Below are positions 34,494 through 55,637 of a stretch of DNA of 64,000 nucleotides, piece by piece. A model generated the notes under the pieces. It was not told the origin of the DNA. It made no database searches and saw only the letters and a list, made by a program, of their open reading frames with translations. The DNA comes from Candidatus Omnitrophota bacterium (GTDB lineage Bacteria > Omnitrophota > Gorgyraeia > Duberdicusellales > 4484-171). Position 1 is the stretch's first letter, and every line of letters starts with the position of its first letter. Made by a program: the position numbers and the translations under genes. The stretch is taken from NCBI GenBank assembly GCA_037146775.1, contig JBAWWL010000002.1:198554-262553 (forward strand). The letters run 5' to 3'.

Positions 34494-34781
34494 AAAGTAT
34501 TCTTCTTCGGCTCATCCGCACGCAGCATATTCTTCCACAAAAGAATTACTTCCCAGAAAGAAACCGCTCATTTCTCGAAACTTTCAGTAGAAAAATCGAA
34601 GTAGTTCAAGATATTCCATGATCGCTAGTTGCATTTTTCTGTCTTCTATTTTATAATTTATATATTTGCAAGACTAAGAAAGTACGTAGTATATAGTACA
34701 GCGTATATAGTATGGAATTGATTGTGTATCTTCGCGATATACGATATACGATGTACTCCTTTTGTTAAGTAAGGTAAAAAA

Positions 34782-36206
34782 ATGACTAAAAATCAAATCT
34801 GGATTCTTGGCGGGGTCGCTTTCTACATGCTTGCGATGCTGCTTATTGGATACTGGGCAAGCAAAAGGGTGAAGAACGCCAGAGATTATATAGTTGCCGG
34901 CGGAAGGCTTGGCTGGATGCTTTCTGTCGGTACTATCTTTGCGACATGGTTTGGCGCGGAAACCTGCATGGGTTCTTCCGGTACTGCTTTTAAAAAAGGA
35001 ATCCTTGGTGTCATCGTCGATCCTTTCGGTGCAGGGCTTTGTCTTATCATATCGGGGTTATTCTTCGCGAAATATTTTCGCAAGCTAAACATCGAAACAA
35101 TCGTTGATTATTTCGAAATGCGTTACGGCAAGCGTGTATCTTGGTTTTTGGGGCTTATTTATATCCCTGTATATTTAGGCTGGATAGGTGCACAACTTCT
35201 TGCTTTTGGTTATATCCTGAATTCACTTACCGGACTTTCTCTCGTGATTTCTATTTTGATTTCGACGGCAGTAGTTATCATCTATACGTATTCCGGCGGC
35301 ATGTGGGCGGATACTATGACTGATTTATTCCAAGGCATCTTGCTCATTGTCGGGCTTCTGATTCTATTTCCGATTTTAATAAAAGACATAGGTGGGTTGG
35401 CGTTTGCGAAAGCAAACACACCCCGGGAATTTCTATATTTTTATCCGCATAGTACCTCAAGGCTTGATTGGTTAAATTATTTTCAGGCGTGGATCATTGT
35501 CGGATTAGGGTCTTTACCGGCGCAGGATCTGTTCCAGCGTACCATGGCGGCGAAGAGTGCAAAAGTAGCCAAGTGGGCGTCAATCCTTTCGGGAGTTTTA
35601 TATATCGTTATCGGTCTTATGCCGGTATTTCTTGGCATATTCGGCCGGCTGGCGTTTAAAGAAAGCTCAGGAGAAAATATACTTATCGAATTATCGTTGC
35701 GTTATCTTTCCGCGCCACTGGTGGCTTTGATGGTGGGCGCGCTTTTATCTGCCATCATGAGCAGTGCGGACAGCGCGCTCCTGGCACCCGCGAGTATCAT
35801 CGGGCACAATATCATCCCTTCCTTGAAACCAGACGCGAGCGAAGAGTTGCAGCTTAAATGGTGCAAACTGGGCGTGCCGCTTTTAGCTGTGCTTTCTCTT
35901 GCGCTTGCGCTTTATTTCAAAAATATCTATAAACTTTGCCAGGAATCATGGGGAGTGCTGCTTGTTGGTCTTGTCGCACCGATGATTGCAGGCGTTTATT
36001 GGAAGAAAGCAAATACTCAAGGCGCTATAGCCGGAGCAATAGGCGGCGTGGTGGCATGGATACTGTTTAAAATTTTTACTCCGGAAAATTTTCCGCATAA
36101 TTTATTTGGATTTGCCGTTTCCTGCGCCGTACTATGCGTTGTCAGTCTGCTCACACAAAAGACAAAAAGTTTACTTGAGGTAACAGAAAAAAGCGTGTTG
36201 CGGTGA
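34782..36206 (+). CDS. Sodium:solute symporter family (SSF) transporter
   Basis: The N-terminal ...DYIVAGGRLGWMLSVGTIFATWFGAETCMGSSG and 13 predicted TM helices are typical of SSF. Confidence 0.7.
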   Translation: MTKNQIWILGGVAFYMLAMLLIGYWASKRVKNARDYIVAGGRLGWMLSVGTIFATWFGAETCMGSSGTAFKKGILGVIVDPFGAGLCLIISGLFFAKYFRKLNIETIVDYFEMRYGKRVSWFLGLIYIPVYLGWIGAQLLAFGYILNSLTGLSLVISILISTAVVIIYTYSGGMWADTMTDLFQGILLIVGLLILFPILIKDIGGLAFAKANTPREFLYFYPHSTSRLDWLNYFQAWIIVGLGSLPAQDLFQRTMAAKSAKVAKWASILSGVLYIVIGLMPVFLGIFGRLAFKESSGENILIELSLRYLSAPLVALMVGALLSAIMSSADSALLAPASIIGHNIIPSLKPDASEELQLKWCKLGVPLLAVLSLALALYFKNIYKLCQESWGVLLVGLVAPMIAGVYWKKANTQGAIAGAIGGVVAWILFKIFTPENFPHNLFGFAVSCAVLCVVSLLTQKTKSLLEVTEKSVLR

Positions 36207-36394
36207 TCTCGGAATAATCATTCTTTTGATTACTGGCTAATGAGATTGATTCCTATACTTGGCCTCTATTTTATGGTAATATTATTGATGTAGCAACACC
36301 GCTTGAAATCTAAAAATCCTTTAAGTTTAATCGAAGCATAAAAATTACCGGCCTCTAGGCCCGGGAAATCCATACTAAAAAAATAAAGGCAGGC

Positions 36395-37522
36395 ATGTCC
36401 TCAGAAAAAATTATCTTTGACTATTCCACGCCAAAAACATTGCATCTTAAATTGCAGGGTGATTGGCGGATTACTTCAGGTCTTCCGGCAGTTACACGCA
36501 TTACTTCCGAGCTCAAAGTTCGCAAAGACATCAGCCAGATTACTTTCGATATGTTACAGATGCAGGAGTGGGATAGCGGGTTTGTGTCTTTCCTGTTACA
36601 GCTGTTTAGGGAATGCGAACATAAGAATATTCATATTGCTCGCGAGGGGCTTTCCCAGGGAGCGCAAAAACTGCTTACTCTCGCGTTGGTGGTGCATGAA
36701 AAAAACCTATCTCGTCAAAAAACTCGTGAGCCTTTTTTCGGAAGGGTCACGGATCGTGTTACAAAGACGGAAGAAAATATACGCTTCTTGCTTCATTTTT
36801 TAGGTGAGATTGCTGTTTCTTTTGGCCGCCTGCTGGTGGGTAAAGCTTATTTTCGTTGGGATGAATTTGTTTATATCGTGCAGAGATGCGGAATTGACGC
36901 GCTGCCCTTAGTTTCTTTGATTAGTATGTTGGTGGGCATGATTCTTGCTTTTATCGGAGCCATACAGCTCAAATTATTTGGGGTTCAGATTTTTATCGCT
37001 GACATCGTTGGAATTGCCGCGGTACGCGTAATGGGGGCGGTTATGACCGGTATTCTTATGTCAGGCCGTACCGGAGCTTCGTTCGCGGCGGAGCTCGGGA
37101 TTATGCAGGTGAACGAAGAAATCGACGCGCTTAAAACTTTAGGAGTTTCTCCGATTGATTTTTTAGTCCTGCCGCGTATCTTGGCTTTAGTTGTCATGAT
37201 GCCGCTTTTAACTCTCTATGCCGATCTGATGGGTATCGTGGGCGGTTTTGTTGTCAGTACCGGTATGCTTGGCCTTAATCCGGTAGAATATTTAACGCAC
37301 ACTCATGATGCAATAAAGATCAGTTATCTGTGGGTGGGGCTTGTGCATAGTTTTGTTTTTGGCATCATTATCGCGATTACCGGATGCCTTCGCGGAATTA
37401 AATGTGAGCGTAATGCTGCTGCAGTGGGAGAAGCGACCACCTCGGCGGTGGTTTCCGGGATTACCGCCATAGTGATTGCTACTGCAATTATTACCTTTGT
37501 GTGCCAGGTTTTAGGAGTGTAG
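36395..37522 (+). CDS. MlaE-family ABC permease with an N-terminal STAS (MlaB-like) domain fused
   Basis: An N-terminal ~120 aa STAS-like region. The C-terminal part is an MlaE/YrbE-type permease (DUF140). Confidence 0.65.
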   Translation: MSSEKIIFDYSTPKTLHLKLQGDWRITSGLPAVTRITSELKVRKDISQITFDMLQMQEWDSGFVSFLLQLFRECEHKNIHIAREGLSQGAQKLLTLALVVHEKNLSRQKTREPFFGRVTDRVTKTEENIRFLLHFLGEIAVSFGRLLVGKAYFRWDEFVYIVQRCGIDALPLVSLISMLVGMILAFIGAIQLKLFGVQIFIADIVGIAAVRVMGAVMTGILMSGRTGASFAAELGIMQVNEEIDALKTLGVSPIDFLVLPRILALVVMMPLLTLYADLMGIVGGFVVSTGMLGLNPVEYLTHTHDAIKISYLWVGLVHSFVFGIIIAITGCLRGIKCERNAAAVGEATTSAVVSGITAIVIATAIITFVCQVLGV

Positions 37523-38293
37523 TTGATGGAAGCGACACCGATTATCCAAGTGACTAATCTTGATTTAAGCTACGATGATTATGTAGTGATGCGTAATCTT
37601 TCTTTTTCTGTGTATAGTGGCGACATTTTTATTGTTATGGGCGCAAGCGGCTGCGGCAAGAGCACGTTACTGAAAGCTCTTATTGGGCTTCAGGCTCCAG
37701 TCGGAGGAGAGGTTTTGTACAGCGGCAAGAATTTTTGGCAAGTGCAAGAGCAGGAACAACTGGCTATTATGCGCCGCTTCGGAGTCCTGTATCAAGGCGG
37801 TGCGCTGTGGAGTTCTTTGACTTTGGCCGAGAATGTTGCGCTTCCTCTACGGCTATACTCACATTTATCTTCCGAGCAAATACGGGAAGTGGTGGCGTTG
37901 AAGCTTTCGCTGGTAGGGCTTGGAGGTTACGAAGATTTTTATCCTTCAGACATAAGCGGAGGCATGCGTAAACGTGCCGGCCTTGCGCGGGCCATCGCGC
38001 TTGATCCGGATATCATATTTTTTGATGAGCCATCGGCCGGCCTTGATCCGGTAAGTGCGCGCCTTTTGGATGATTTGATTTTGCAGCTTAGGGACACCCT
38101 AGGCGCGACAATCGTGATTGTCACACATGAGCTCGCCAGTATTTTTACCGTGGGTAATAACGCGATATTTCTTGATGCGGAAAGTAAGACCATGATTGCT
38201 TCCGGCAATCCAAGGGATTTATTGGCTCATTCCAAAGATCCCAGGGTCATTCAGTTCTTAACCAGAGGAGAGAAACAAGGAGTTGGAAGATGA
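37523..38293 (+). CDS. MlaF-like ABC transporter ATP-binding protein
   Basis: Walker A GASGCGKST, signature ISGGMRKRAGLARA, Walker B IIFFDEPSAGLD. 1-bp gap after the MlaE gene. Confidence 0.8.
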   Translation: MMEATPIIQVTNLDLSYDDYVVMRNLSFSVYSGDIFIVMGASGCGKSTLLKALIGLQAPVGGEVLYSGKNFWQVQEQEQLAIMRRFGVLYQGGALWSSLTLAENVALPLRLYSHLSSEQIREVVALKLSLVGLGGYEDFYPSDISGGMRKRAGLARAIALDPDIIFFDEPSAGLDPVSARLLDDLILQLRDTLGATIVIVTHELASIFTVGNNAIFLDAESKTMIASGNPRDLLAHSKDPRVIQFLTRGEKQGVGR

Positions 38294-38994
38294 GTAGAAA
38301 AGCGAACAAAACGGCGATAGGTATGTTTGTGGTAGGGGCGACAGCGCTGCTTGTCGTAGCCATCTTGGCTTTTGGTTCAGGAGCGTTTTTAAAAAAGTCC
38401 GATAAGTATGTTTTATTTTTTGACGGCTCTATCCAGGGCCTGTCTGTGGGCGCGCCGGTAATCTTCCGGGGAGTCAAGATCGGCAATGTTGCCGAAATTA
38501 GCCTGCTGTATGACCCGAAGAGCAAAGAAATCTTAATTCCTGTAGTTGTGGATGTGGAGCTTGCCCGCGTGAAAGGCGCTCCCGAGACATTCGGTTACGC
38601 CAGTTACGAGCAATTCATCCAGGAGGGCCTGCGTGGCCGGCTTGAGGTGGAGAATTTTATCACCGGTCAACTTATGCTTTCTTTTGATTTTTATCCGGAT
38701 AGGCCGGCAAAAATATACGATATTGAAACCGCATATCCGGAGTTGCCCGCGCTTCCTATATCGCCGGATATTTTTAAAGTCATGCGGGATATTCCTATCA
38801 AAGAAATTTCGGATAATTTAGAGCAAGTTGTCGCGGGGATCAATAAATTGATCAGCTCGGACGGTTTTTACGGAGTTAACAGCACGCTTCAGGAAGTTTC
38901 TCAGACCGCGCGTTCTTTGCGTTTGTTCGTGGAATATCTCGAGCAGCATCCGGAAGCATTTTTGAAAGGGAAACCAAATTCTAAAGGAGAGTAA
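38290..38994 (+). CDS. MlaD/PqiB-like MCE-domain protein
   Basis: N-terminal TM anchor then an MCE domain (FDGSIQGLSVGAPVIFRGVKIGNVAEISL). Confidence 0.7.
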   Translation: MSRKANKTAIGMFVVGATALLVVAILAFGSGAFLKKSDKYVLFFDGSIQGLSVGAPVIFRGVKIGNVAEISLLYDPKSKEILIPVVVDVELARVKGAPETFGYASYEQFIQEGLRGRLEVENFITGQLMLSFDFYPDRPAKIYDIETAYPELPALPISPDIFKVMRDIPIKEISDNLEQVVAGINKLISSDGFYGVNSTLQEVSQTARSLRLFVEYLEQHPEAFLKGKPNSKGE

Positions 38995-38995
38995 T

Positions 38996-39655
38996 ATGAA
39001 GCAGAAAAGTTTTGTTTTTTGTGCGGGTGTAGTTTGTGTATTTTTTGTTTTGGCCTTGTATGGATGTATCTCTGTTGCTAATAGTCAAACGCCGCGATTT
39101 TATACGCTTCGTGCCATCGCTGACGACCAAGTAAGTAAAAAATTCAACATTTCTTCCCAAGTGATTATCGGTATAGGCCCGGTCGAAATTCCGGAATATC
39201 TTAATCGGCCGCACATGGTGACTCAGAATAAAGACCGGACGCTTAACTTTGCTCAGTTTGATCGCTGGGGAGAGTCTCTCGACCTTGCTTTCAAGCGCCT
39301 GGTTCACGAAGACTTAAGTGCCATGATCGGTGGAGCAACCTTACAGATGTTTCCCTGGAGTTTTGCTATTCCGGTCAAATATCAGGTGGTTGTGAGTGTC
39401 ATGCAATTAGAAAGCGCGCTTGATAAGGACCTGTTCTTTGTAGCGCAATGGTCGATTATCGATTTGGAAAGAAAAGAAATGGTTTTTACCAAAAGGTCAC
39501 AGTTTCGTCAAGCTATTAACCCCCATTCGTACGCTGGTTTAGCCCAAGCGCTCAGTGAGGTGTGTGTATCGCTTAGTAGTGAGATTGCCGAGGAGCTTGC
39601 TTCGCAAGCAGTTAACACTAATACCAGGAAAAAGAACCCTGCATCCAGAAGATAA
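38996..39655 (+). CDS. Lipoprotein, probable ABC-transport auxiliary component (PqiC/DUF330-like)
   Basis: Lipobox LYGC. Position directly after the MCE gene. Confidence 0.45.
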   Translation: MKQKSFVFCAGVVCVFFVLALYGCISVANSQTPRFYTLRAIADDQVSKKFNISSQVIIGIGPVEIPEYLNRPHMVTQNKDRTLNFAQFDRWGESLDLAFKRLVHEDLSAMIGGATLQMFPWSFAIPVKYQVVVSVMQLESALDKDLFFVAQWSIIDLERKEMVFTKRSQFRQAINPHSYAGLAQALSEVCVSLSSEIAEELASQAVNTNTRKKNPASRR

Positions 39656-39732
39656 GTTTATTTTTTCTTCAAGATAGATGCGTGCTGGCCTTATATATAG
39701 GAAAGAGAAATATTAGCCATTCCCGCCAAAAG

Positions 39733-40575
39733 ATGTTAAAGCGATACATATCAAAAAAAATAATCCAGACTTTACTGCTGTCTTGTATCTGTGGCATTCT
39801 TTGTATCTCCCAGGTACTCGCCGGTGATATTGTTATCTACGGAGATAGCCAGTTTAGTAATGATGCCCAGCGTAAAGTAGTAAGAGCTATCCTAGAATGC
39901 AAGCCCGCAATAGTTTTCCGGGTAGGGGATCTTACGGCAGACGGTCGCAGCCTAAAACAATGGGAAACCTTTCATAAAATCAATGATAAGCTTATACAAA
40001 GTAGCGAATACTTCCCCGCGCTTGGCAATCACGAATATAATTCTGCGCTCTATTTTAGTAATTTTAATCTAGCGCTTGATAAACGGTGGTATTCAGTCCA
40101 GCGCCAAGGCATCCATTTCATTGTCTTAGATAGCAATTCCAGCCTCGATAAAGATTCAGAGCAATACAAGTGGTTAGAGCGAGACTTAAGCAACGTCGGG
40201 AAAGATATCAAATTTCGTATTGCGCTCTTTCATCATCCGTTATTTGATACCGGCTGGCACAAGGAAGACGAGAAAGGGCTAAAGCCTGTTCTTATTCCTT
40301 TATTCGAGAAGTATGGTGTGTCTGTAGTGTTTTCCGGCCATGATCATAATTATCAGCGCTTTAGATATAATGGCATCTTTTATATTATTACCGGCGGAGG
40401 AGGAGCACCTCTTTATGGCCGCCTGCGTAAGAGTTCGTATCTTGAGAAATTCGCTCTCGCATATCATTTTTGTCTGTTGTCTGTAACAGATAATGTGCTG
40501 AAGATTAAAGTGCTTGATACTAAACTGCAAGTTCTTGACGAATTTGATATCAAAGAGAAAGTATATAGTCGATAG
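39733..40575 (+). CDS. Secreted calcineurin-like metallophosphoesterase
   Basis: GDLTADG, GNHEY and FSGHDHNYQR metallophosphoesterase motifs. The ATG at 39733 gives a signal peptide and is preferred over the GTG at 39682. The last codons overlap a GTATATAGT repeat array. Confidence 0.65.
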   Translation: MLKRYISKKIIQTLLLSCICGILCISQVLAGDIVIYGDSQFSNDAQRKVVRAILECKPAIVFRVGDLTADGRSLKQWETFHKINDKLIQSSEYFPALGNHEYNSALYFSNFNLALDKRWYSVQRQGIHFIVLDSNSSLDKDSEQYKWLERDLSNVGKDIKFRIALFHHPLFDTGWHKEDEKGLKPVLIPLFEKYGVSVVFSGHDHNYQRFRYNGIFYIITGGGGAPLYGRLRKSSYLEKFALAYHFCLLSVTDNVLKIKVLDTKLQVLDEFDIKEKVYSR

Positions 40576-40685
40576 TATATAGTCGTGAGTATTGAGTACT
40601 GAGTATATAGTGGGGGAAGGACGTATATAGTATAGAGTACATAGTATATCGTAAACAAACTGGGCGGAGGGTAACGGGGAACTCG

Positions 40686-40764
40686 GTGGACGGTTGCGGT
40701 TACTCGCCTCGATTTGCTCGGCGAAGCGGGCGAAGCTCGTCTCGGTTACGTCTAACGGTAACGT
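40686..40764 (+). repeat. GC-rich ~80-bp element, left copy of an inverted pair bracketing 40.7-45.6 kb
   Basis: ACGGTTGCGGTTACTCGCCTCGATTTGCTCGGCGAAGCGGGCGAAGCTCGTCTCGGTTACGTCTAACGGTAACG is ~90% identical to the reverse complement of 45532-45615. Confidence 0.55.
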
Positions 40765-41065
40765 TTTATAATAAACTCTAAACCAAAATATTTCAAACTC
40801 AAAACACTATTGTTTAGGATTTTGAATTTATGATTTTGGATTTGTTTAGGATTTAGTCCTTCGACTTCGCTCAGGACTAATGGCGAGCACAGTCGAACCA
40901 TTAGAGTTTTCCACCTCCATAATGCACTTATTATGGTGGATCCGCCTAAGTTTTAACGGTGGCGGAAGTGTTTAGGGTTTATTTACCACAACCTCACGAC
41001 TACATACTCTATACTACATACGACATATTATCTCCCTACTGCAATGCTTGACAAGATAATCTGTT

Positions 41066-41644
41066 ATGGTACTTTATTACCATAAACATGGTGACAATAT
41101 GATATCCTTACGTTCAAAAGTGGCAATAAAATTACTGGACTACTATTTTCTTAATCCGGATACTCATGCGTACATCAATGAATTGGCCAGGACATTAGAG
41201 CTTGATCCTAAAAATACCGAAACTAAACTTAAGGAATTTGAGAAAGAAGGCCTTTTTAAAAGCGAATTCCGCGGAAAAGAAAGATATTTCTTTCTCGCAA
41301 AGGATAACCCCGTTTTGGAGCATTACCGCCAGATTTTTCTAAAGACCTATGGTATAGAAAAGAGGCTTCAAGATATGCTGCGGGGGATTAAGGGGCTTAC
41401 GGAAGCATATCTATTCGGTTCATATGCAAGTAACAAGATGAACTCTTCAAGCGATATTGATATCCTAGCTATTGGCACGCACTCTGTTTTAGAATTGCAA
41501 AGATTCATCGCAAAATTGCAGAAAGATGTCGGTAGAGAATTCAATGTAACGAATTTAAACCTAAAGGAATTCGAGGCAAAGAAAAAATGTAAAAACCCTT
41601 TTATAAATAGCGTTTTTAAAACTAAGACTATAAGGCTTATATGA
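41066..41644 (+). CDS. Nucleotidyltransferase (MNT-type antitoxin-like) with an N-terminal winged-helix region
   Basis: The GS...SDIDIL nucleotidyltransferase motif (LFGSYASNKMNSSSDIDILAIG). 4-bp overlap with the downstream HEPN gene. Confidence 0.6.
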   Translation: MVLYYHKHGDNMISLRSKVAIKLLDYYFLNPDTHAYINELARTLELDPKNTETKLKEFEKEGLFKSEFRGKERYFFLAKDNPVLEHYRQIFLKTYGIEKRLQDMLRGIKGLTEAYLFGSYASNKMNSSSDIDILAIGTHSVLELQRFIAKLQKDVGREFNVTNLNLKEFEAKKKCKNPFINSVFKTKTIRLI

Positions 41645-42039
41645 TTAATTTTGAAAGTCAATACTTTCAGAAACTGGCATTTAAAAAGGAGCAAATTGAC
41701 CAATTCGTAAGGTCCGCCCTTCATGATCTTAAGATAGCTCAAAATTCGGATATTGTGGATGTTATCTTTAAGTTCAGTTACGATGCGCTCATAAAATTAG
41801 GTATTGCGCTCATTGCTAAGAAAGGGTACAAAATAAGGAGCACAATCGGTCATCATGTTAAGATACTTGAGAAACTGAGCCAAATACTTGGAGAAGAGGA
41901 TGTCCTCGTGCTTGGCAATAAGATGAGACAGGAACGTAATGTTAATCTTTATGATGGCGGTTTCTTTATTGGAGAGAAAGACAGCCGCGAATATTTGGAT
42001 TTTGTAAAGAAAGTTTTTAAGAAAGCAAGCATAGAATAG
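41641..42039 (+). CDS. HEPN-domain protein (toxin partner of the MNT)
   Basis: Rx4H motif (KIRSTIGHH). All-alpha HEPN-sized protein coupled to the MNT gene. Confidence 0.6.
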   Translation: MINFESQYFQKLAFKKEQIDQFVRSALHDLKIAQNSDIVDVIFKFSYDALIKLGIALIAKKGYKIRSTIGHHVKILEKLSQILGEEDVLVLGNKMRQERNVNLYDGGFFIGEKDSREYLDFVKKVFKKASIE

Positions 42040-42060
42040 TTAGCAAGCACCAACAAGCAT

Positions 42061-42290
42061 TCTTTAATTTTTCTCCCCTTACTATGTACGACATACTCTG
42101 TACTACATACTTTTTTATGTTTAATTTTTCTCCCTCCCATTATCTTTTCCCCGGTTTCAATTTTTAATATTTAATTTTTCTTTTACTCTATACTCATTAC
42201 TCAATGCTCACGACTACATACTATGTACTACATACTCCATGCTACCCATTATTGCCTAATAACCTACCAACATAATAACCTATCAACCAT
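42061..42290 (+). repeat. G-depleted degenerate short-repeat array (TACTACATAC / CCTA(A/C)CAACAT units)
   Basis: ctatgtacgacatactctgtactacatac...cacgactacatactatgtactacatactccatgctacccattattgcctaataacctaccaacataataacctatcaacc. Related arrays occur at 40981-41015, 45340-45480, 45621-45700 and 51170-51250, and on the opposite strand at 34681-34760 and 40561-40655. Confidence 0.5.
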
Positions 42291-42308
42291 TCCAGCTTTC
42301 ATGTTCTC

Positions 42309-42337
42309 TTGACAAAAAGCTACCGTTTATTTACAAT
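42309..42337 (+). promoter_or_regulatory. Sigma70-like promoter TTGACA-17-TACAAT upstream of the P-type ATPase with a ~250-nt structured leader
   Basis: TTGACA at 42309-42314 and TACAAT at 42332-42337. The leader contains hairpins, e.g. GGAACTG-13 nt-CAGTTCC at 42382-42408. Confidence 0.4.
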
Positions 42338-42585
42338 AAACTCCAACAAGGAAGAACAGGTTCTCATGCCGGGTCATTAAATGGAACTGCTGCGTTTCGT
42401 AACAGTTCCTAAATTGGCAGTAGCTTCATGCTACGGGACTTCCTTCAGTTTCAGGTGCCCGGTTTATATATGAGAACAAGTTTTTCCTTTTTATTTTTTA
42501 TCCGCCTTGGTGTAGAAAACTGCAGATATTCATCTTAGCTTTTGCTTGGTGAAGCGGATAAGTTCGTGGAGTTTCATTTAAGTTA

Positions 42586-45177
<2,592 letters not shown>

Positions 45178-45531
45178 AAGAGTGCTTAATATAATAACTA
45201 AAATGGAGTATGCTCCATTATGGTAATACTAATATGGAGGGTGTTTTTACGGGCACTGTGGTCCGGGAAAATAATTTAAGTAGAGGATAGCTGTCCCAAC
45301 CTTTTCTGCATATCAATTCGCTAATCCTTTAACCCTTCCTGTCCTTATATATCCATTTTTAATATTTGATATTTAATATTTAATTTTTCTCCCCCCTTCT
45401 TGCCTAATAACCTATCAACATACCAACCTATCAACCTATATCCTTTTCCCCCCCCTGCTATGTACTACATACGCCATACTACATACGATCTTTCTTTATG
45501 TTTCGCACACGTCATCCGTTATGATGTATGA

Positions 45532-45615
45532 GCCGTTGCCGCTAAACGTAACCGATACGAGCTTCGCCTGCTTCGCCGAGGGAATCGAGGCGAGTAACCG
45601 TAACCGTTCGCCAAG
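45532..45615 (-). repeat. GC-rich ~80-bp element, right (inverted) copy
   Basis: Its reverse complement GCTTGGCGAACGGTTACGGTTACTCGCCTCGATTCCCTCGGCGAAGCAGGCGAAGCTCGTATCGGTTACGTTTAGCGGCAACGG matches 40686-40764. Confidence 0.55.
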
Positions 45616-45919
45616 CTTGCCTACTATGTAATCTATACTCCGTACTACCCATTATTGCCTACTAACCTATCAACATACTCACCTATTAACCATTATAGTT
45701 AATTCATAAAAAAACTATTGACATCTTTTTATATAATGTTAAATTAAAGTAACGGTTTTTTTTAATGAGGCAGCAACTTTTCAAGCCTATAGGCAAAGAA
45801 AAATTGCTTAGCCGAATTAATCCGACGAGGCTGCTAAAATTATGGTAGAGGATTTTAGCGTATGTAAGTCCGAGTCGGGATATGTACAGAAATTATATTA
45901 AGGATAAAAAAGGAGGGGT

Positions 45920-46534
45920 GTGATGATAAAGGGTAATTTAAGGATTGGTTTTGTTTTCTTGTTTGCTTTACTTCTTACCGTAAGCGCTGTGTATGCAGAA
46001 ATTAATCTTTCCACTTCCGGCGGAAAGTTAGGTATTAAAGCCGCAGGTAAAACTACTAATTTAGATAGTAATACCACTGAAACCACCGTTTCCGATTCAT
46101 CAGGAGCAAAAGTTGATATAAATTATAATGCCGCAGAAGGTACTGCTAGTTTAGCTTCTAGCACAGGCACCGCCACCCTCACGTATAATATCGCAAAAAT
46201 ATTTTTAGATAACGGTGAATCTGCTGACGTAGGCCCTACCGGCCCATACGGAAGTTTTTATATTACCAATACTTCAGGTGAGGGAAAGATTGTTGTAATA
46301 TTCCCCGACAACTCGAAAATCACCATGCCTCCAAGTGCGAAAGTTTCTCTCACTTTTCTTGCTGACGACAATTTTAATTTAAAAGTATTAGAGGGAACGG
46401 TTGAATATGTTGACGCGAAAGGTAACGCGCAGATGCTAACGCCAAACTCTCCTGCGATATTCGTAAAGGGTTTCGGCCAGGTTCCTGGCTGGCGTAGCAT
46501 TGAACCTGACAGGTTACATCCTGCAACCCCATAG
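45920..46534 (+). CDS. Secreted Thr/Ser/Gly-rich hypothetical protein
   Basis: Signal peptide. SD AAGGAGGGG upstream. First gene of the glycan locus. Confidence 0.3.
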   Translation: MMIKGNLRIGFVFLFALLLTVSAVYAEINLSTSGGKLGIKAAGKTTNLDSNTTETTVSDSSGAKVDINYNAAEGTASLASSTGTATLTYNIAKIFLDNGESADVGPTGPYGSFYITNTSGEGKIVVIFPDNSKITMPPSAKVSLTFLADDNFNLKVLEGTVEYVDAKGNAQMLTPNSPAIFVKGFGQVPGWRSIEPDRLHPATP

Positions 46535-46600
46535 TTTATTATTTTGTAATTTGAATTTTGTTATTTGTCATTACCAAAGAGGAGGATGAACGTGGAAAAG

Positions 46601-47764
46601 ATGAAGTTAAGTAAATGTTTTATCGTAGTGGCTGTTTTATTATTGCTCGTTGCGCCTTATGCCCGTGCAGAATTTATGGTTAAGCCTGTTAGGGGCACTC
46701 TGCTGGTTTCTGAAGGCATGCTTTATAATAGTAACCCTGGCTATGCTGATGTTGGTGCCCGCGAACATGACTGGGCAAACCAGATGTCTGCAGGGTTATC
46801 TCTTGAAGTTCCTTTTGGCCAGATCCATAAATACACCCTTAATTCAAACACCACATGGATTAAATATTTTACCAATCATAAGTTTAACCAAGTTAATAAT
46901 AATCTTACTCATTCTGTGGATTTTACTTTTAACCGCTGGGCGTTGAATATTCATCAGAATTTTGATGCTAGCTCTGTGCCTGATACTAACGAAATGCCTA
47001 TTGTTTCAAAAGAACTTCTTCGTAAACGTATAAATGCTCCTGGTTTTGCTGTCAGGGGAGATTTAGGTAAACTTAAATTATCCGGCGGTTTTGATTACCA
47101 AGATTATGATACAAACGATGAATATAAAATATTACAGAGAAAAACTTATACACCTTACCTAGAAGGTGCCATGCAGATAACCCCGCTTCTTGATGGTTTT
47201 ATGCGTTATACCTATACTCGCACAATTCGAGCTGAGAATGTGTTAAACAATAGCCATGGTAATGATGTCAAGGTTGGTTTACGTGGAAACTTAACCCCTT
47301 ATCTTACCGGTGAAGTAGGGATTGGCTATGACTGGACTGATTTTAGTCAATCTGGTACTACCGGTGATCAAAGTAATTATCATGGTCTTGTTTACTCAGG
47401 AGGCCTTACTAATCGCCTGTCAAAACACACCACACAAAAGATTTCTTTCTCGCTTGAACCGGAACAAGGTTACAGCGATGCTAACTACTATAAGTGTTGG
47501 ACCACAGAATATATGCTTTCCCATACTTTAAATACCAAAGTTGACGTGAACGCTTCTGTGGGGTATATTCTTAGCAATGAGTCAGGACATGCTTACGATA
47601 TGGAAAAGTCAAATATTTGGCAGTTTGGCACCGGCTTTAATTATCATTTGGCCAAAAATTCAGATTTAGTAGTGGGTTATAATTTTAGTGATAAAAGTTC
47701 TAACAGGCCCGGTAAAAATTACAAACAACACGCTCTCTCTACGAGCGTAAATTACCGATTCTAA
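46601..47764 (+). CDS. Outer-membrane beta-barrel protein
   Basis: Signal peptide, alternating amphipathic beta-strand pattern and a C-terminal ...VNYRF with terminal Phe. Start at ATG 46601 or GTG 46592, after AGGAGG. Confidence 0.5.
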   Translation: MKLSKCFIVVAVLLLLVAPYARAEFMVKPVRGTLLVSEGMLYNSNPGYADVGAREHDWANQMSAGLSLEVPFGQIHKYTLNSNTTWIKYFTNHKFNQVNNNLTHSVDFTFNRWALNIHQNFDASSVPDTNEMPIVSKELLRKRINAPGFAVRGDLGKLKLSGGFDYQDYDTNDEYKILQRKTYTPYLEGAMQITPLLDGFMRYTYTRTIRAENVLNNSHGNDVKVGLRGNLTPYLTGEVGIGYDWTDFSQSGTTGDQSNYHGLVYSGGLTNRLSKHTTQKISFSLEPEQGYSDANYYKCWTTEYMLSHTLNTKVDVNASVGYILSNESGHAYDMEKSNIWQFGTGFNYHLAKNSDLVVGYNFSDKSSNRPGKNYKQHALSTSVNYRF

Positions 47765-47851
47765 ACCCGATTCGGAGTATATGCAGAAAACGCCACTGGA
47801 TATGTTTGTGGCATCTACTTGTCTTCGTTTCGATTAAACTAATAAAAACTA

Positions 47852-48529
47852 ATGCAAGGTTTCTACTACGTGAGAGATTTTTGTTTGAAAATTTTTACCT
47901 ACCTTTTTCTAGGAATAATAGTTCTATATAGTTTAACTTATTTCCTGCCTATTTCTGTTTTTGCCCAAGCTGAGCAAAAACCCAGCCAGGTTATCGCAAA
48001 AGGCGATAAGCTAACCATAAAAGTTTTAGAGCAAGAAGATTTAAACGGAGCATATACAGTTTCTTCCGAGGGTGCAATAGAATTCCCTCTTATCAATGAA
48101 CGCATTCCTGCCGTAGGTCTTACTTATGATGAGCTCGCCCAAAAAATCAAAGAAAAGTTAGAAGAAAAATATTTCTATAAAGCGACAGTCATTGTTTCTG
48201 CTTTTACCGGCGAAGAAATTCGTACTAACAATGCATCTTCTGTTGGAGGAGTTATATATGTATATGGAATGGTGGGTAATCCTGGCGCAATTAATATTCC
48301 GGAAGGAGAAGTGCTGACGGTAAGTAAAGTACTTATTCGTTGTGGCGGATTTAAGGATTTTGCTAATAAAGGAAGAATAAAACTTATTAGAAAATCTCAA
48401 GCAACCGGTAAAGCTCAGATTACTTATCTGAACATGGTAGATATTATAGATAAAGGAAAAGTCGAAAAAGATATTGTAGTACGCGATGGCGATTTAATCG
48501 TAGTTCCTGAGAAATTTTTTAATTTTTAA
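47852..48529 (+). CDS. Polysaccharide export protein (Wza/GumB-like Poly_export + SLBB)
   Basis: IAKGDKLTIKVLEQEDLNGAYTVSSEGAIEFPLI (Poly_export). C-terminal RDGDLIVVPE. Confidence 0.6.
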   Translation: MQGFYYVRDFCLKIFTYLFLGIIVLYSLTYFLPISVFAQAEQKPSQVIAKGDKLTIKVLEQEDLNGAYTVSSEGAIEFPLINERIPAVGLTYDELAQKIKEKLEEKYFYKATVIVSAFTGEEIRTNNASSVGGVIYVYGMVGNPGAINIPEGEVLTVSKVLIRCGGFKDFANKGRIKLIRKSQATGKAQITYLNMVDIIDKGKVEKDIVVRDGDLIVVPEKFFNF

Positions 48530-48551
48530 TTATATTTAATAAAAATTTAAT

Positions 48552-50825
48552 ATGCATTTGCCAGAAGATAATATACTTATAAGTAAGATTGATTTTAAAC
48601 AATATTTAGAAATACTTCTTAACCGCAAAGACGTATTTATTATTTCTGTATTAGTGTGTTTGATTGTGGGGACAGGTTTTGTTTTGGCAACGAAGCCAAC
48701 CTATCGAGCATCGGCGCAACTGCAGGTTAATACCGGCGTTAACATGCCCATTGCTTCTTCTGTTTATCGAGATAGGCCCGAAGATTACTACTATCTTTCT
48801 AACCAAATAGAGCTTTTACAGGGCAAAACCCTGAAAGATAATGTGTTGAGCGCTCTTTCGTCGTGGGTAGATAAGGTTCCAAAGAAATTTTTGGAACCAA
48901 AGCTTAAAGTTGAAACCGCACGTGGTAATGTTATCTCTATATTGGCAGATAGCCCTTATAAGGAATACGCCTTAGCTTATGTTGAAACGTTGATGAAGGA
49001 ATATATGACCTTTAAGACAGGGCAAAAGGAAAAAAGTTCAAGCTTTGCTCTTTCAAATCTTACAAAGCAGGCCAGCCAGTTAAATGATAAGATTACCGGT
49101 ATGCAGAAAGAAATTCTTAAATTTAAAGAACAGCATAATGATATTTTACTTGATGATTATGGTAACTTTTCAAACAGTTATCTCATGACTTTGACTCGGA
49201 AACAATCCGAGATAAGGTCAGAGATGATTTTAATTGAAAAGAAGATCCAGGCGTTAGAAGGGAGCGAAGATCCTTCTTTCTGGATTTCTGTCATTGATGA
49301 TATACAGCGTGGTACCGTGACGCCGACTATTTCAAAGGAGGCTCAGCCGGAAGCAACGCTTAGTTCCATGCCGAGTACCAACTCTAAATTTTACGGTCAA
49401 GGTAAAACCGGAACCCCCAGTCAGTCGGTTAATAGCATTCAAGTTGAACAACTTCCTTTTGTTTTTATTCTTGAAAAAGAACAAAGTAAATATTGGCAAG
49501 ACTTAAAAGTTCGTTACGGAAAATTAAAATCCGAATATGCTCGGATAGCGAAGCTATATAAGCCCGAGCATCCTTACTTAAAACAGGTATCCGATGACTT
49601 AAGTACAGTAAAGCGAGACATGGCATCAGAAGTTGGCTCATTACTTGAGAAATTTAAGGCAAAATATGAAGGGCTAAAACTCGAAGAGCAAGCCGTAGAT
49701 GAAGAGTTAAAACGTTGGCAATCCACATCCCTAACTTCGTCTTCAGTGGTAAACCAATTTTCGGCGCTTAAAGATGAAGAACTCAGGTTGAAGAAATTAT
49801 ATCAGGCGCTTGTGGACAGGATAGAAGAAATATCAGTAACCTCTGATTTTGGTCTTGAAACTGTCCAGATAGTTCAGAACCCGCGGGTTGATCGGCTTCC
49901 TTTTAAAAAACTATTTAATCTCTTAATGGTTATTGTTGTAAGTTTCATGGGTGGATGCGGAGTCGTTTTTGCGGTCGAGTATTTAGATGATTCAATAAAA
50001 TCTTCCGATGATTTAAGAAAATATACAGGATTGGCTGCCCTCGGTATGGTTAATGCTATAGATTGGAATCAGGGTGATGTTGCAGGACACAAAATTACAT
50101 TTTTAAAGGATAGTCATGTTGTGGAGGCGTACCGCTCTATACGTACTAATATTCTTTTAGCCAAGCCCGAAAGCGTTCTTAAAACTATCTTAATTACGAG
50201 TGCGGTTCCATCAGAGGGTAAAACTACCTCTTCGGTGAATACTGCTATAGTGTTAGCGCAAAGTGGGCTTAAAGTACTTTTGATTGACGCGGATATGCGG
50301 CGTCCTACTATCCATAAGGTTTTTAGTCTCAAAGATAAAAATGGATTATCCGCTGTTCTTGCAGAAACTGAGTCATTTGATAGTTGTGTGCAAAAAACTG
50401 ATGTGGAGAATCTGGATTTGTTGCCGGCAGGCCATATTGTGAGTGATCCTCCTAAACTACTTCACGCGAGCAAAATAAAAGAATTATTCCAAGCTCTTTG
50501 TAAGCGCTACGATAGAATAATTATTGACAGTGCCCCTGTGCTAACCGTTACCGATAGTGTTATCTTGAGCGATCTAGTTGATGGAATAATATTTGTTGTT
50601 TATGGTGGTAAAACCTCAAGGCTTGCTCTTATTAGGGCAAAAGAAGTATTGTTAACAAATTCTACTAAAATATTTGGCACAATTATCAATAATCTATCGA
50701 TTAAGAAAATGTCTGGTTATTACTATTCGTATTATGGGTATAAATATAAATACCACTATGGTTACGGTAAAGAGAATTCTTCGAGCAAAAAAGAAGATAA
50801 AAAGACCGAAGAGGTAATATTGTAA
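48552..50825 (+). CDS. Polysaccharide co-polymerase / BY-kinase (Wzc/GumC-like)
   Basis: N-terminal Wzz-type domain with two TM segments, a coiled-coil periplasmic region, a C-terminal P-loop (SEGKTTSSVNTAIVLAQSGLKVLLIDADMRRP) and a C-terminal Tyr cluster YYYSYYGYKYKYHYGYG. Confidence 0.75.
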   Translation: MHLPEDNILISKIDFKQYLEILLNRKDVFIISVLVCLIVGTGFVLATKPTYRASAQLQVNTGVNMPIASSVYRDRPEDYYYLSNQIELLQGKTLKDNVLSALSSWVDKVPKKFLEPKLKVETARGNVISILADSPYKEYALAYVETLMKEYMTFKTGQKEKSSSFALSNLTKQASQLNDKITGMQKEILKFKEQHNDILLDDYGNFSNSYLMTLTRKQSEIRSEMILIEKKIQALEGSEDPSFWISVIDDIQRGTVTPTISKEAQPEATLSSMPSTNSKFYGQGKTGTPSQSVNSIQVEQLPFVFILEKEQSKYWQDLKVRYGKLKSEYARIAKLYKPEHPYLKQVSDDLSTVKRDMASEVGSLLEKFKAKYEGLKLEEQAVDEELKRWQSTSLTSSSVVNQFSALKDEELRLKKLYQALVDRIEEISVTSDFGLETVQIVQNPRVDRLPFKKLFNLLMVIVVSFMGGCGVVFAVEYLDDSIKSSDDLRKYTGLAALGMVNAIDWNQGDVAGHKITFLKDSHVVEAYRSIRTNILLAKPESVLKTILITSAVPSEGKTTSSVNTAIVLAQSGLKVLLIDADMRRPTIHKVFSLKDKNGLSAVLAETESFDSCVQKTDVENLDLLPAGHIVSDPPKLLHASKIKELFQALCKRYDRIIIDSAPVLTVTDSVILSDLVDGIIFVVYGGKTSRLALIRAKEVLLTNSTKIFGTIINNLSIKKMSGYYYSYYGYKYKYHYGYGKENSSSKKEDKKTEEVIL

Positions 50826-50830
50826 ACTGT

Positions 50831-53533
50831 GTGGTGTGCAGAGAAGATTTCAATCAATCCTCACGTAAATCCAATTCTTTCATATTTAAAATCACCTTAT
50901 TCAGTGCTATTCTTCTAATTCCACTTGTTGCCTCTACTGAATATCTTTGGGCAATCAGCTTCATCATTCTTTTAGGAAGTATTACCTTATTGGTGATTGC
51001 CTTGGATATTTTTCATTCCAAGCGCATTGAATTTATTCCAACCTTCATTCTTCCCCTTATTTTATTTTTACTCATCTATTTTCTCATCACCCTAATATCT
51101 CTCCCAGCCTTTATTTTGCAATTTCTCTCCCTCCGTGCCTTCGCTATCTATAGCAACTATTTGCCCCCCGCTTCGCCTACCAACCTACCAACATCTTTGT
51201 ATACCAACATACCAACATATCAACCTACTAACCTATTTACCCTTTATCCTATTAGCCTATACCCACACAATACGCTCGTAGGCTTAGGTGTAGCACTATC
51301 TTTTTTCGCCATATTTCTATTCCTCATTAATAATCTCGACAGTTTTCGTTTAAGGATAAAGATAGTAAAAACAATTATTTTTTCTGCTACTCTCGTAACT
51401 TGCTTAGGAATTATTAATATGCTAATTCAGAATAAAAAATTGTTCTGGTTTATAGATATAATATCCGGTACACCCACAGGCCCTTTTATTAATACCATTC
51501 ACTTCGCCTCATTCGTGGCGCTCTATATACCTTTGGTATTGGGCATATGGGTTGGTAAAATTGATTTTCATATAAAAGATTGTAAATTCGGCAAAGCTAA
51601 GTCAATGCTCTATAAGTTCATAATATTTATAAAAAATTCAATTATCTATTTACTCCCGGCTTTGTTGATGATATTCGCTTTATTTAAGTCGCTTTCCCGC
51701 GGAGCAATGTTAGCTTTTTGTACTTCAATGTTTATCTTTGTATTGCTTATAGCTTTTAAATCAAAAACTCGTCTACGCGCTATCATTCTTCTAGTTTTTA
51801 CTTTTTCGTTTTTAGCTTTGACTTTCTATGTCGACTCGTTTAATATCAAATCCAAAATATTGTCATTAACCAATAGTCAAGGCGAAAACGCCATATTCAA
51901 CCAAGATATAACAGAAAGAATTTCTACACTTAAACACCCGTTGCAAACCGATAGTGCAAAGACGCGTTTTAGTGTTTGGCGTGATACTCTTAAGATATTT
52001 TCTGATTTTCCGTTATTTGGCACAGGCCTAAATACTTTTAGCATTATTTTTCCTAAATATAAGACTATCTATGGTTCTGGAAAAATGTTTTTTACTCACT
52101 CCGAGAATGATTATGTTGAAACTCTATCTGAAGTTGGTTTATTAGGTATAATACCAATATTATTAATCTTGATAATCTTTTTAAGAAACACATTCATAAA
52201 TTTTAAATTAGAAACCGACTCTCTAAAAATTGGTATTATTTCTGGTGGCATCGCTTCCGTTTTTGCGCTTCTTTTTTGCGCATTAACCGATTTTTCTTTC
52301 CATATCCCTTCTGTTAGTTTTATTTTTATGCTTATCTGTTTCGTAATTTGGCCAAAGACAAAAAAAAGAAAAATTATCTCATTTAATGATATGGTGGGCA
52401 GGAAGAAACCTATAGCTATTGTGGTATTGCTATTTTTAGTGGCAATATTTATGTTTATATTTTCTGTTCAACTATTATTAGGCGAAATATATTTCTATAA
52501 ATTTAATTATTCTCAAGATAGCTTTCAGGTTAAACAAAACTATATTAAAAAAGCTGTCTTTTTTAATAATGGTAATGCGGAATATAGGTACTCTTTAGGA
52601 AAAATTTATTTTGATCAAGCGACTTTGCTAAGGAATAAAGATGAAGCTGCAGCTTTAGAGCTTATCAAACAGGCGAAAACAGAATTTGAAAAAGCGATAA
52701 TTTTGCAACCTACTCATTGGAAGTACCATTTTTTTAACGGCTCAGCTGAACTTATTCTTGTTTCTTCTCGGGTCAAGGGCTATTCTTTTAACAATGCTGA
52801 ATCTTCCTTTGAAAAAGCCTTAAGTCTAAATCCTACAGAATACGATATATACGGTTATTTAGCTAATTACTATTTGCCTTTTGATTCAGAAAAAGCATTT
52901 AAGTATTATCGTAAGCTTATCATGCTTAGGCCATATTATTTAGGTAGTATATTAGATACTATTTGGAAAATAAACAATAATCCTGACTTTATCCGAGAAG
53001 CCATTCCCAGTACTCCAAGGTTAATAGCGCAATACGCTGATTTTTTAAAATCTAAAGGTATCAATTCTGCTAAATTCTATAAAGAATCTGCTTTTCTCGC
53101 GTCTCCTTCCGCAAAAAATAAAGAAGACCAACTTGCTATCGCCCAAAAGCTCGCTCTTTCCAATGGTTTCAAGGACGCTTTTGATTATTTCCTTGATTCT
53201 TTACAGTCAAGTAGCTTTTTCCAAAAGAATAAAGAACAATTTATCATCCCGACATATTCTAGTGAACAACTTATAAAAGAAGAGGAGAATGTCAGCACAT
53301 TACAAAAAACACTTTCTCCCGACGATCCTCAGCTAACATATAAATTAGCCCTTTTCCATTATCAGCTAAAGGACTATAATAAAGCTTCTGAATACTTTAT
53401 GAAATTACTAAAAATCTCTCCCAACAACCCCTTTCTGCGCTTCCACCTCGCTATGGCATTGTATAAGAGGGGAGAGCATAAAGAGGCGTACGAGGAGCTC
53501 AGGCAGGCTATTACTTTGATTAATGACAGATGA
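50831..53533 (+). CDS. O-antigen ligase/polymerase-like (Wzy_C) polytopic membrane protein with a C-terminal TPR domain; start uncertain
   Basis: Many TM helices then a TPR-like C-terminus (YFMKLLKISPNNPFLRFHLAMALYKRGEHKEAYEEL). The first ~140 codons include a repeat-derived low-complexity stretch (PTNLPTSLYTNIPTYQPTNL) encoded by the CCAACMTA array at 51170-51250. Confidence 0.55.
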   Translation: MVCREDFNQSSRKSNSFIFKITLFSAILLIPLVASTEYLWAISFIILLGSITLLVIALDIFHSKRIEFIPTFILPLILFLLIYFLITLISLPAFILQFLSLRAFAIYSNYLPPASPTNLPTSLYTNIPTYQPTNLFTLYPISLYPHNTLVGLGVALSFFAIFLFLINNLDSFRLRIKIVKTIIFSATLVTCLGIINMLIQNKKLFWFIDIISGTPTGPFINTIHFASFVALYIPLVLGIWVGKIDFHIKDCKFGKAKSMLYKFIIFIKNSIIYLLPALLMIFALFKSLSRGAMLAFCTSMFIFVLLIAFKSKTRLRAIILLVFTFSFLALTFYVDSFNIKSKILSLTNSQGENAIFNQDITERISTLKHPLQTDSAKTRFSVWRDTLKIFSDFPLFGTGLNTFSIIFPKYKTIYGSGKMFFTHSENDYVETLSEVGLLGIIPILLILIIFLRNTFINFKLETDSLKIGIISGGIASVFALLFCALTDFSFHIPSVSFIFMLICFVIWPKTKKRKIISFNDMVGRKKPIAIVVLLFLVAIFMFIFSVQLLLGEIYFYKFNYSQDSFQVKQNYIKKAVFFNNGNAEYRYSLGKIYFDQATLLRNKDEAAALELIKQAKTEFEKAIILQPTHWKYHFFNGSAELILVSSRVKGYSFNNAESSFEKALSLNPTEYDIYGYLANYYLPFDSEKAFKYYRKLIMLRPYYLGSILDTIWKINNNPDFIREAIPSTPRLIAQYADFLKSKGINSAKFYKESAFLASPSAKNKEDQLAIAQKLALSNGFKDAFDYFLDSLQSSSFFQKNKEQFIIPTYSSEQLIKEEENVSTLQKTLSPDDPQLTYKLALFHYQLKDYNKASEYFMKLLKISPNNPFLRFHLAMALYKRGEHKEAYEELRQAITLINDR

Positions 53534-53542
53534 CAAGATATA

Positions 53543-53566: not shown

Positions 53567-53615
53567 TGACAAATAATATCAGACTAACAAAAGTCACTTA
53601 ATAACAAAGGTCAAA

Positions 53616-55616: not shown

Positions 55617-55637
55617 AAAACTAAAAATATAAGTTAA

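Follow-up and report, generated by a model that had tools for sequence, protein, structure and literature searches.

Degenerate heptanucleotide-repeat arrays and the small cassettes between their inverted pairs in a Candidatus Omnitrophota genome

Short-repeat tracts almost devoid of G recur within a 64,000-nt stretch of the genome of a Candidatus Omnitrophota bacterium (assembly GCA_037146775.1, contig JBAWWL010000002.1, positions 198,554 to 262,553 of the forward strand), hereafter called the window, to whose first letter all positions refer. These tracts are degenerate tandem arrays of 7-nt and 8-nt units which belong to the bacterial heptanucleotide-repeat class, and we put at about 0.6 the probability that their inverted pairs are stem-forming borders of small cassettes resembling the intervening sequences (IVSs) of 23S rRNA. 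The repeat class itself is already known; what is new is the arrangement, in which inverted pairs of heptamer arrays stand around small cassettes.

The initial annotation of this DNA had reported a family of degenerate repeat words at seven sites between 34681 and 51250. Inspection of the sequence bears out the words at all of them, and the arrays not only occupy this interval but go on outside it, at 53522-54115, 55588-56180 and 57285-57800. With at most one mismatch, ACTACATAC is found 22 times in the window against 9.25 ± 3.06 times in shuffled sequences, and CCTAYCAAC 35 times against 18.7 ± 3.65, numbers which in either case none of 100 shuffles reaches. Exact copies of ACTACATAC number seven, every one of them on the + strand and within 40999-45486, and six of them form three pairs spaced 14 nt. 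The depletion of G on the + strand is likewise real: G makes up 3-6% of the tracts but 22% of the window on average, and stretches with no more than three G per 80 nt occur in the 64 kb only at 42101-42294, 45309-45486, 45629-45748 and 50847-51280.

What had been taken for a single word family resolves into two unit families, the 7-mer H1 and the 8-mer H4, together with arrays of TTTAATA (H3) and TTTAGGA (H2, which has its own hairpin at 40775-40856). The H1 unit is AGTATAT, or ACTACAT on the other strand, and an in-register parse (AGTATAT AGTCGAT AGTATAT AGTCGTG and so on) conserves the trinucleotide AGT/ACT every 7 nt; the H4 unit is CCTAYCAA. Tandem Repeats Finder (TRF) detects a period of 7 or 14 at 34687, 40560, 40623, 40813, 40999, 42080, 42155, 42213, 45358 and 45463, and a period of 8 or 16 at 42257, 45409, 45660, 51176 and 51201, with imperfect copies (62-93% matched). 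A lag scan of the whole window similarly recovers arrays almost solely from periods 7, 14, 8 and 16. Self-similarity of the seven tracts is highest at lags 7 (0.48), 14 (0.44), 16 (0.39) and 21 (0.38), and the lag match of array-free intergenic DNA in the window is flat, at about 0.26-0.27. A periodicity of about 10-11 bp, which had been considered earlier, is contradicted by a match fraction of 0.30 at these lags versus 0.48 at lag 7. Among the 25 intergenic regions longer than 60 nt, lag 7 scores best in ten; one of these, 11406-11779, merely ties at background level, and the nine with real lag-7 arrays all lie within 34.5-57.8 kb. The 22 nt that separate the Wza gene from the Wzc gene are also occupied by an A/T-rich period-7 tract of TTTTTAA type (48513-48551), which extends over the 3' end of the former gene.

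The motif arrays described earlier are thus genuine, yet they had not been recognized as members of a class known from other phyla, the tandem heptanucleotide repeats (PMC4679880, PMC4692102). Heptamers are in excess among the simple repeats of bacteria, and named arrays include STRR in Calothrix, GGGGAYT in Nostoc, GGGAATC in Xanthomonas (inverted pairs included) and TAACTGA in Beggiatoaceae, cyanobacteria and Bacteroidetes (PMC4692102, PMC4679880). TAACTGA arrays abut start codons devoid of a Shine-Dalgarno sequence, and strains differ by 7-nt indels (PMC4679880, PMC4692102). Polymerase slippage and the binding of cold-shock or S1-type proteins have been proposed for heptamer repeats, whose origin and function are unsettled (PMC4692102, PMC4679880). 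Like these repeats, the arrays of the window consist of head-to-tail 7-nt copies, are mostly intergenic (one array is coding) and often abut start or stop codons, and they share heterogeneous units around a conserved core, occasional inverted pairs and a patchy phylogenetic distribution (PMC4679880, PMC4692102). Unlike the named families, they are found in Omnitrophota, are far more degenerate and have other unit sequences, as AGTATAT/ACTACAT, TTTAATA, TTTAGGA, AATGACA and AAAACTN match neither STRR1-3 (CCCCAGT/TTGGTCA/CAACAGT) nor TAACTGA or GGGAATC. They are also accompanied by an 8-nt family, CCTAYCAA, whose period places it outside the strict heptanucleotide definition. Finally, the window arrays are not distributed at random: members of one family systematically form imperfect inverted pairs as arms around small gene cassettes, an arrangement of which no description was found in the literature searched.

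Three of these cassettes, all on the + strand, each contain a gene encoding a four-helix-bundle protein (23S_rRNA_IVP in Pfam, TIGR02436 in NCBIfam) and sit between Wzy, sugar-transferase and ABC-transporter genes. In cassette 1 (53515-54120), the gene 53616-53987 lies between an (AATGACA)n and a (TTTGTCA)n arm, and a single long stem encloses it entirely in the predicted fold (z = -4.65). Cassette 2 (55585-56180) consists of an (AAAACTN)n arm, the gene 55638-56003 and a (TTTTAAC)n arm, while in cassette 3 (57285-57800) the gene, listed at 57310-57711, is preceded by a CCAATGTCCAATGAGCTAATGACGAAT arm and followed by a complementary ATTCGTCATT...TTGGACATTG arm, CCAATGTCC..AATGACGAAT standing opposite its complement. 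For the three cassettes, the arm duplexes have z values of -2.6 to -6.3 relative to shuffled sequences, and the arms display the lag-7, 14 and 21 signal too. When the flanks of 59 window genes were scored for inverted repeats, the top two genes were two of the three four-helix-bundle genes. A search for rRNA gave no matches in the window, and the cassettes are therefore not located in a 23S or 16S rRNA helix.

The three four-helix-bundle (Avd-like) paralogues are 37-52% identical and interspersed in the polysaccharide cluster, with no reverse transcriptase near them; we know of no role for the PF05635 four-helix-bundle family outside diversity-generating retroelements. [quoted passage not shown] Seven nucleotides past the downstream arm of cassette 2, a gene without a Shine-Dalgarno sequence (56183-56419, + strand) encodes a 78-aa protein of the HTH_17 family (excisionase-type DNA-binding), which could belong to an inserted element.

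H1 arrays bracket a cassette of another kind. The G-containing array at 40560-40657 (AGTATAT-type, 14 heptads, + strand) comprises an outer arm, 40560-40611, and an inner arm, 40622-40653, and it overlaps the 3' end of the metallophosphoesterase gene 39733-40575 (+), as had been noted, supplying its last five codons and stop codon (KVYSR*). The outer arm is complementary over 52 nt (87%) to 42185-42236 (inverted repeat I2), within the G-poor H1 array 42183-42252 (+), and the duplex, at -66 kcal/mol, has a z of -8.4 versus shuffles. This outer pair encloses a cassette at 41066-42039 (+) with an NTase/HEPN-like gene pair. Its first gene (41066-41644), an MntA-like nucleotidyltransferase (NTase), has NTP_transf_2/Polbeta domains in Pfam and matches the NCBIfam MntA model weakly, at 31.9 bits, below the cut-off of 60; the second, an ORF of 132 codons (41641-42039), shows no family match in Pfam or NCBIfam and contains an RSTIGH (Rx4H) motif. 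Type VII MntA/HepT toxin-antitoxin systems consist of an MNT nucleotidyltransferase and a HEPN partner with an Rx4-6H motif, and the cassette may be such a pair. Its bracket score, 60.3 bits where the median for genes of the window is 16, is above those of all four-helix-bundle genes in the window. The inner arm pairs with 40993-41027 (I3, 83%; I5, 88%; duplex z = -4.0), in the G-poor, ACTACAT-type array 40993-41034 (+), around a 340-nt gene-less insert, and the fold of the region 40540-41065 has a z of -4.25. This insert contains one copy of a GC-rich core, considered below, and the H2 hairpin at 40775-40856 (+), a self-complementary heptamer array in which AAACTCTAAACC... pairs with (TTTAGGA)n in a local stem (TRF period 7, 6.7 copies).

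The association between four-helix-bundle genes and heptamer-type arms extends to other genomes. Six more such genes were picked solely by the size of their contig (two in NCBI assemblies, one of them annotated as Omnitrophica, one in Wolfebacteria and three on metagenome contigs), and all six proved to lie inside operons (type II secretion E/F, Wza/Wzz, CNNM), bracketed by inverted heptamer-type arms. When flanking inverted repeats were scored against 68 control genes, all nine genes, three from the window and these six, reached at least the 95th percentile of the controls, whose one outlier is a gene between two cassettes. Altogether, 13 of the 13 four-helix-bundle genes examined, three in the window and ten elsewhere, are bracketed. 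The arm units vary among cassettes (AATGACA, AAAACTN, AATTTCT, TATCAGN, GTAGTAT, CCAATAA) and complementarity is kept. The protein of cassette 3 is 73-75% identical to those of two other loci (L204 and L206) with conserved downstream arms, and one gene-plus-arm unit is kept across three genomes, with a protein identity of 73-77% and the downstream arm in common. In Wolfebacteria, the cassette arms are identical in four samples, and the locus upstream of the T2SSE gene shows no length variation in the aligned region. Other genomes also show, at 4640-4800 of L207 and 3855-4070 of L213, gene-less heptamer hairpins (after ruvB in Wolfebacteria) and ordinary genes seemingly bracketed only by lying between neighbouring cassettes. 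A scan for PF05635 returned 7,941 matches among 8,000 candidates scored, which indicates a very large family, and no relatives of the four-helix-bundle genes were found in the viral contigs scanned.

H1-type arrays recur as well. The pattern ACTACATAC-N5-ACTACATAC was scanned over contigs representing one genome per species (1.2e12 positions), and its exact form is present in more than 118 stretches among the matches listed, versus about 17 by chance, a rough estimate for 18 specified bases. Hosts among these matches include Bacteroidales, many Patescibacteria (CPR, the candidate phyla radiation), Omnitrophota, Planctomycetota, Gammaproteobacteria, Ignavibacteria and others, and a single genome often has several such loci. 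Nearly all of these loci (at least 118) lie inside longer heptamer arrays, often beside blocks of one-base variants (ACTCCAT, ACTACAC, ACTACCT), and their flanks contain 70 more period-7 arrays of other units compared with at most 11 for each of the periods not divisible by 7. Such arrays reach all the way from a stop codon to the next start codon and run both with and against the direction of transcription. A four-helix-bundle gene is present at four of the 118 loci listed, each time exactly between two H1-type arms, and the G-containing arm comes first in 17 of the 19 inverted H1 pairs among the matches listed. H1 partners more than 600 nt apart were tried as a guide to cassettes and rejected: three of four enclose ordinary housekeeping genes, the fourth (L094) being a four-helix-bundle cassette. 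Across phyla, many heptamer units at these loci (L002-L119) have an AGT/ACT (or CAGT/ACTG) core, for instance GAGTCAC, TAGTAAG, GTACTCT and CGTAACT. The published STRR and TAACTGA units also have this core.

Within the window, the array blocks appear in permuted copies. Downstream of the NTase/HEPN-like pair, a G-poor H1 array (42078-42112, +; TRF period 14) is followed by a T-rich spacer with an H3 array and C-runs (42113-42182, +; direct repeats D5, D6 and D9), by the outer arm described above and by an H4 octamer array at 42255-42294 (+; D1, D3; TRF period 16), of the form CCTAATAA CCTACCAA CATAATAA CCTATCAA. The latter, joined with 42219-42254, makes up a 73-nt H1+H4 module (D3; 42219-42291) which is found again, 86% identical (73 nt, E = 2e-14), at 45622-45694, within an H1 (45617-45651) and H4 (45658-45697) tract on the + strand. 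Further arrays on this strand near the second copy are an H3 array at 45355-45389 (TRF period 7, 87% matches; also found by the lag scan), an H4 array at 45395-45442 (TRF period 8), 92% identical to 42252-42288, and a G-poor H1 array at 45456-45490. Exact blocks of 19 and 16 nt are common to 42.06-42.29 kb and 45.34-45.70 kb in permuted order, and 42163-42181 is 100% identical to 45372-45390.

One H4 array (51168-51255, +) is coding. It overlaps the ORF 50831-53533, as the initial annotation had indicated, and lies in frame inside this O-antigen-ligase-like ORF, whose Wzy_C domain occupies residues 277-442 (Pfam). It encodes about 27 residues in a loop between predicted membrane helices, and the frame is kept. 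The sole detectable homologue (38% identity) aligns on both sides of the array and lacks about 15 residues exactly there; the ORF therefore starts upstream of the array. The array is probably tolerated because a unit without G creates no stop codon, whichever sense frame it is read in.

The closest known architecture is the 23S rRNA IVS, in which an S23p (four-helix-bundle) ORF lies between terminal inverted repeats and is cut out by RNase III (PMC4990558); 23S_rRNA_IVP ORFs have also been described in rRNA insertions of CPR bacteria (bioRxiv 10.1101/2024.02.27.582315). Like the IVSs of Leptospira, Coxiella and CPR, the window cassettes have an ORF of about 120 aa encoding a four-helix bundle within complementary termini that form a long stem, a GC content below that of their surroundings, and a sporadic distribution suggesting horizontal transfer (PMC4990558). 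They differ in lying between protein-coding genes of a polysaccharide operon, and not in an rRNA helix, and in having arms that are degenerate heptamer arrays of 50-130 nt instead of a 28-bp near-perfect stem; the H1-bracketed units, moreover, carry an NTase/HEPN-like pair or no gene. No description of four-helix-bundle genes outside rRNA bracketed by heptamer arrays was found in the literature searched, which is absence of evidence only.

We infer the following course of events. The arrays would arise and be reshaped by slipped-strand mispairing and by duplication and recombination of array blocks. Upon transcription of the operon, the two arms would pair into a long imperfect stem isolating the insert from the host transcript, and this stem, by analogy with rRNA IVSs, may be a substrate of RNase III. 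In the DNA itself, arrays held in common would offer homologous sequence for the gain, loss and shuffling of inserts and array blocks, and the cassettes may be mobile. The unpaired G-poor arrays (H4, H3 and extra H1 blocks) would be the same material in the form of single or duplicated blocks. Two of them form the duplicated 73-nt module upstream of promoter-like sites, and one would have expanded in frame in a membrane-protein loop.

Several observations weigh against this model. Because H4 and H3 arrays have no inverted partner in the window and the region 45178-45720 is unstructured (fold z = +0.8), stem formation covers only part of the finding. Elsewhere, an inverted partner within 3 kb is found for only 19 of the 118 H1-type arrays listed, and most of them are therefore solo. 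A comparison of the two strands for signs of selection on the RNA gives stems of about equal stability on both, according to duplex energies. In sense orientation, G-U pairs outnumber A-C mismatches (54 vs 24, p = 0.0009), a bias that ordinary strand-biased mutation can also give. The gene-less inserts, searched for a decayed four-helix-bundle gene, yielded no trace of one. The four-helix-bundle genes counted above are relatives of the window's own and not a random sample of PF05635. The nearest relative contig (L120) stops inside the metallophosphoesterase gene, before the arrays, and gives no empty-site comparison.

A broader version of the cassette model, which we regard as speculative and rather unlikely, is that PF05635 Avd-like genes with heptamer-array arms are widespread IVS-like mobile cassettes which enter transcribed DNA, both operons and rRNA genes, in Omnitrophota, CPR, Bacteroidota and further phyla by inserting into hairpins made of heptamer arrays, the window arrays being landing pads and left-over arms. 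If so, the complementarity of the arms would be kept because the insertion does no harm once the stem is excised from the host transcript, and the four-helix-bundle protein may itself act on heptad-repeat nucleic acid.

Among alternative explanations, one which we also consider unlikely is that the arrays are neutral by-products of replication slippage, and that the inverted pairs result from inserts landing in the loops of palindromic arrays or from inverted duplication of arrays, with no role in RNA or regulation. A polymerase-slippage origin has been proposed for the excess of heptamers (PMC4692102, citing Mrazek 2007). The degeneracy of the arrays is consistent with it, as are mutated units amplified in blocks (ACTCCAT beside ACTACAT in L002, three block types in L114), the predominance elsewhere of solo H1-type arrays in either orientation relative to flanking genes, and the nested outer and inner arms of L204, which are expected from insertion into an existing palindrome. 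Slippage alone, however, leaves unexplained the bracketing of every four-helix-bundle gene examined, the complementarity kept across unrelated arm sequences, and the conservation of a gene-plus-arm unit across genomes.

It is less probable that the tracts are arrays of binding sites, either for a single-strand nucleic-acid binder of the cold-shock or S1 type with a footprint of about 7 nt, or for a transcription factor, serving Shine-Dalgarno-independent translation, as proposed for TAACTGA, or promoter control. CspB has been found to bind heptamer repeats with one protein per unit, and a translational role has been proposed (PMC4679880). In the window, six start codons (34782, 41066, 53616, 54128, 55638 and 56183) have an array that ends 0-32 nt ahead of them, and all six are without the AGGAGG-like sequence present before 38290, 38996 and 46565; elsewhere, the distance from the array end to a start codon is at most 30 nt for 18 of 35 H1 arrays in sense orientation. 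The last base of the 73-nt module is 42291 in one copy and 45694 in the other, respectively 18 and 23 nt ahead of the two best matches to a sigma-70-like promoter, TTGACA-17-TACAAT at 42309-42337 (+; 11/12, the best of the region) and TTGACA-16-TAAATT with a TG extension at 45718-45745 (+), both being consensus matches only. As unpaired blocks sit upstream of promoter-like sites and Shine-Dalgarno-less starts, these blocks may have a regulatory role. Nevertheless, arrays also follow stop codons directly or lie within an ORF, the genes beside them include no candidate regulator, and since there are many different units in both orientations, no single sequence-specific binder fits. Downstream of 42309-42337, the leader of the ATPase gene (42340-42600, +) has a predicted fold in which a long stem closes a multi-branch junction and a U-run comes after it (minimum free energy -86.8 kcal/mol, z = -5.71), and it has no Rfam match; it is a candidate for an unclassified attenuator or riboswitch-like element. 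Rfam gave no match at gathering thresholds across the whole window, and 40400-46000 gave chance-level matches alone at E <= 1.

That the tracts are termini or scars of a transposase-driven miniature element, similar to miniature inverted-repeat transposable elements (MITEs) or repetitive extragenic palindromic (REP) sequences, or of a composite transposon carrying the ATPase segment, appears quite improbable. This proposal stems from the GC-rich core of about 75 nt, ACGGTTRCGGTTACTCGCCTCGATT..CTCGGCGAAGC.GGCGAAGCTCG..CGGTTACG, which occurs at 40690-40765 (+) and, inverted, at 45532-45607 (-), the two copies being about 90% identical. They are the core of the inverted repeat I1 (40682-40770 and 45527-45615; 89 nt, 84% complementary, with 62 nt at 92%), which flanks 40771-45526 and hence the ATPase segment, and each follows an H1 array. 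The second copy has an H1 array on either side, the two having one orientation, and at 45.5 kb core and spacer separate two H1 blocks, each similar to 42221-42247, as though they had entered an array. In Genome Research in 2008, Elhai et al. reportedly described small dispersed repeats and MITEs as nested in Nostoc heptamer arrays, and the core resembles them in lying in or next to heptamer arrays, one of which it seems to split at 45.5 kb; in contrast to the Nostoc MITEs, it has two copies and no sign of recent transposition. The copies are few and diverged (86-92%; two each of the 73-nt module, 86%, and of the core), no transposase, integrase or target-site duplication was recognized, the core has no Rfam match, and the arrays are tandem repeats, not unique termini. 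In 1.5 Mb of retrieved loci, neither the core nor the 73-nt/H4 module has further copies, array-level matches alone being found. Of the origins suggested in the initial annotation, the ends of an uncharacterized mobile element nevertheless came closest, as inverted array pairs do bracket inserts, without the transposase and target-site duplication of such an element having been found.

Assembly or low-complexity artefacts and phase-variable contingency tracts can practically be dismissed: public assemblies do break near repeats, and one contig of the independent Logan assembly of run SRR12676968 begins at 40842, inside the heptamer hairpin 40775-40856, but over 40842-57633 (16.8 kb), a range that takes in every array from 42 kb on, this assembly, from the same population, is identical to the window at each base, so that the tracts are not assembler noise. 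The same agreement, together with the imperfection of the arrays, which disfavours slippage-driven switching, the frame kept by the coding array and the invariant cassette arms of the Wolfebacteria samples, led to the rejection of phase-variation simple repeats as a comparison and argues against the hypervariable tracts suggested earlier. Both public assemblies of the organism also break in the ATPase gene, at its GDGVNDAPAL motif (44359-44382), where the GCA_964613555.1 contig departs from the window sequence from 44382 onward and two Logan contigs abut with a 24-nt overlap, on which the window's join rests; the break is probably a graph branch from a paralogous or co-occurring ATPase.

The window has a GC content of about 41% and nearly all its genes on the + strand. 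Upstream of the metallophosphoesterase gene at 39733 are a sodium/solute symporter gene, with its start codon at 34782, followed by MlaE, MlaF, MlaD and an auxiliary lipoprotein. The array before the symporter gene consists of five GTAYATA units (34682-34716) and four CGATATA units (34733-34760) on the + strand (TRF period 7, heptad parse). The site reported there (34681-34760) does contain an array and is the weakest of all; its hairpin, 22 nt upstream of the start, is not significant (fold z = -0.8). A P-type cation ATPase gene (42598-45177, +) follows the NTase/HEPN-like cassette, and after it come, in order, a lipoprotein and an outer-membrane barrel, Wza, Wzc, the Wzy/O-antigen-ligase-like gene and the polysaccharide cluster. 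Orthologous loci were sought through the metallophosphoesterase, and the 80 metagenome loci retrieved include one close relative, L120, whereas relatives of at most 55% identity are devoid of heptamer arrays and of synteny beyond that gene.

Heptamer repeats have been known to be over-represented since 2007 without an accepted origin or function, and the window ties them to PF05635 genes in one recurring architecture. This arrangement offers a testable model, in which stem-forming arms would let small cassettes sit harmlessly within operons, and it provides a simple rule for annotating the low-complexity tracts of uncultivated lineages and the assembly breaks that they cause.

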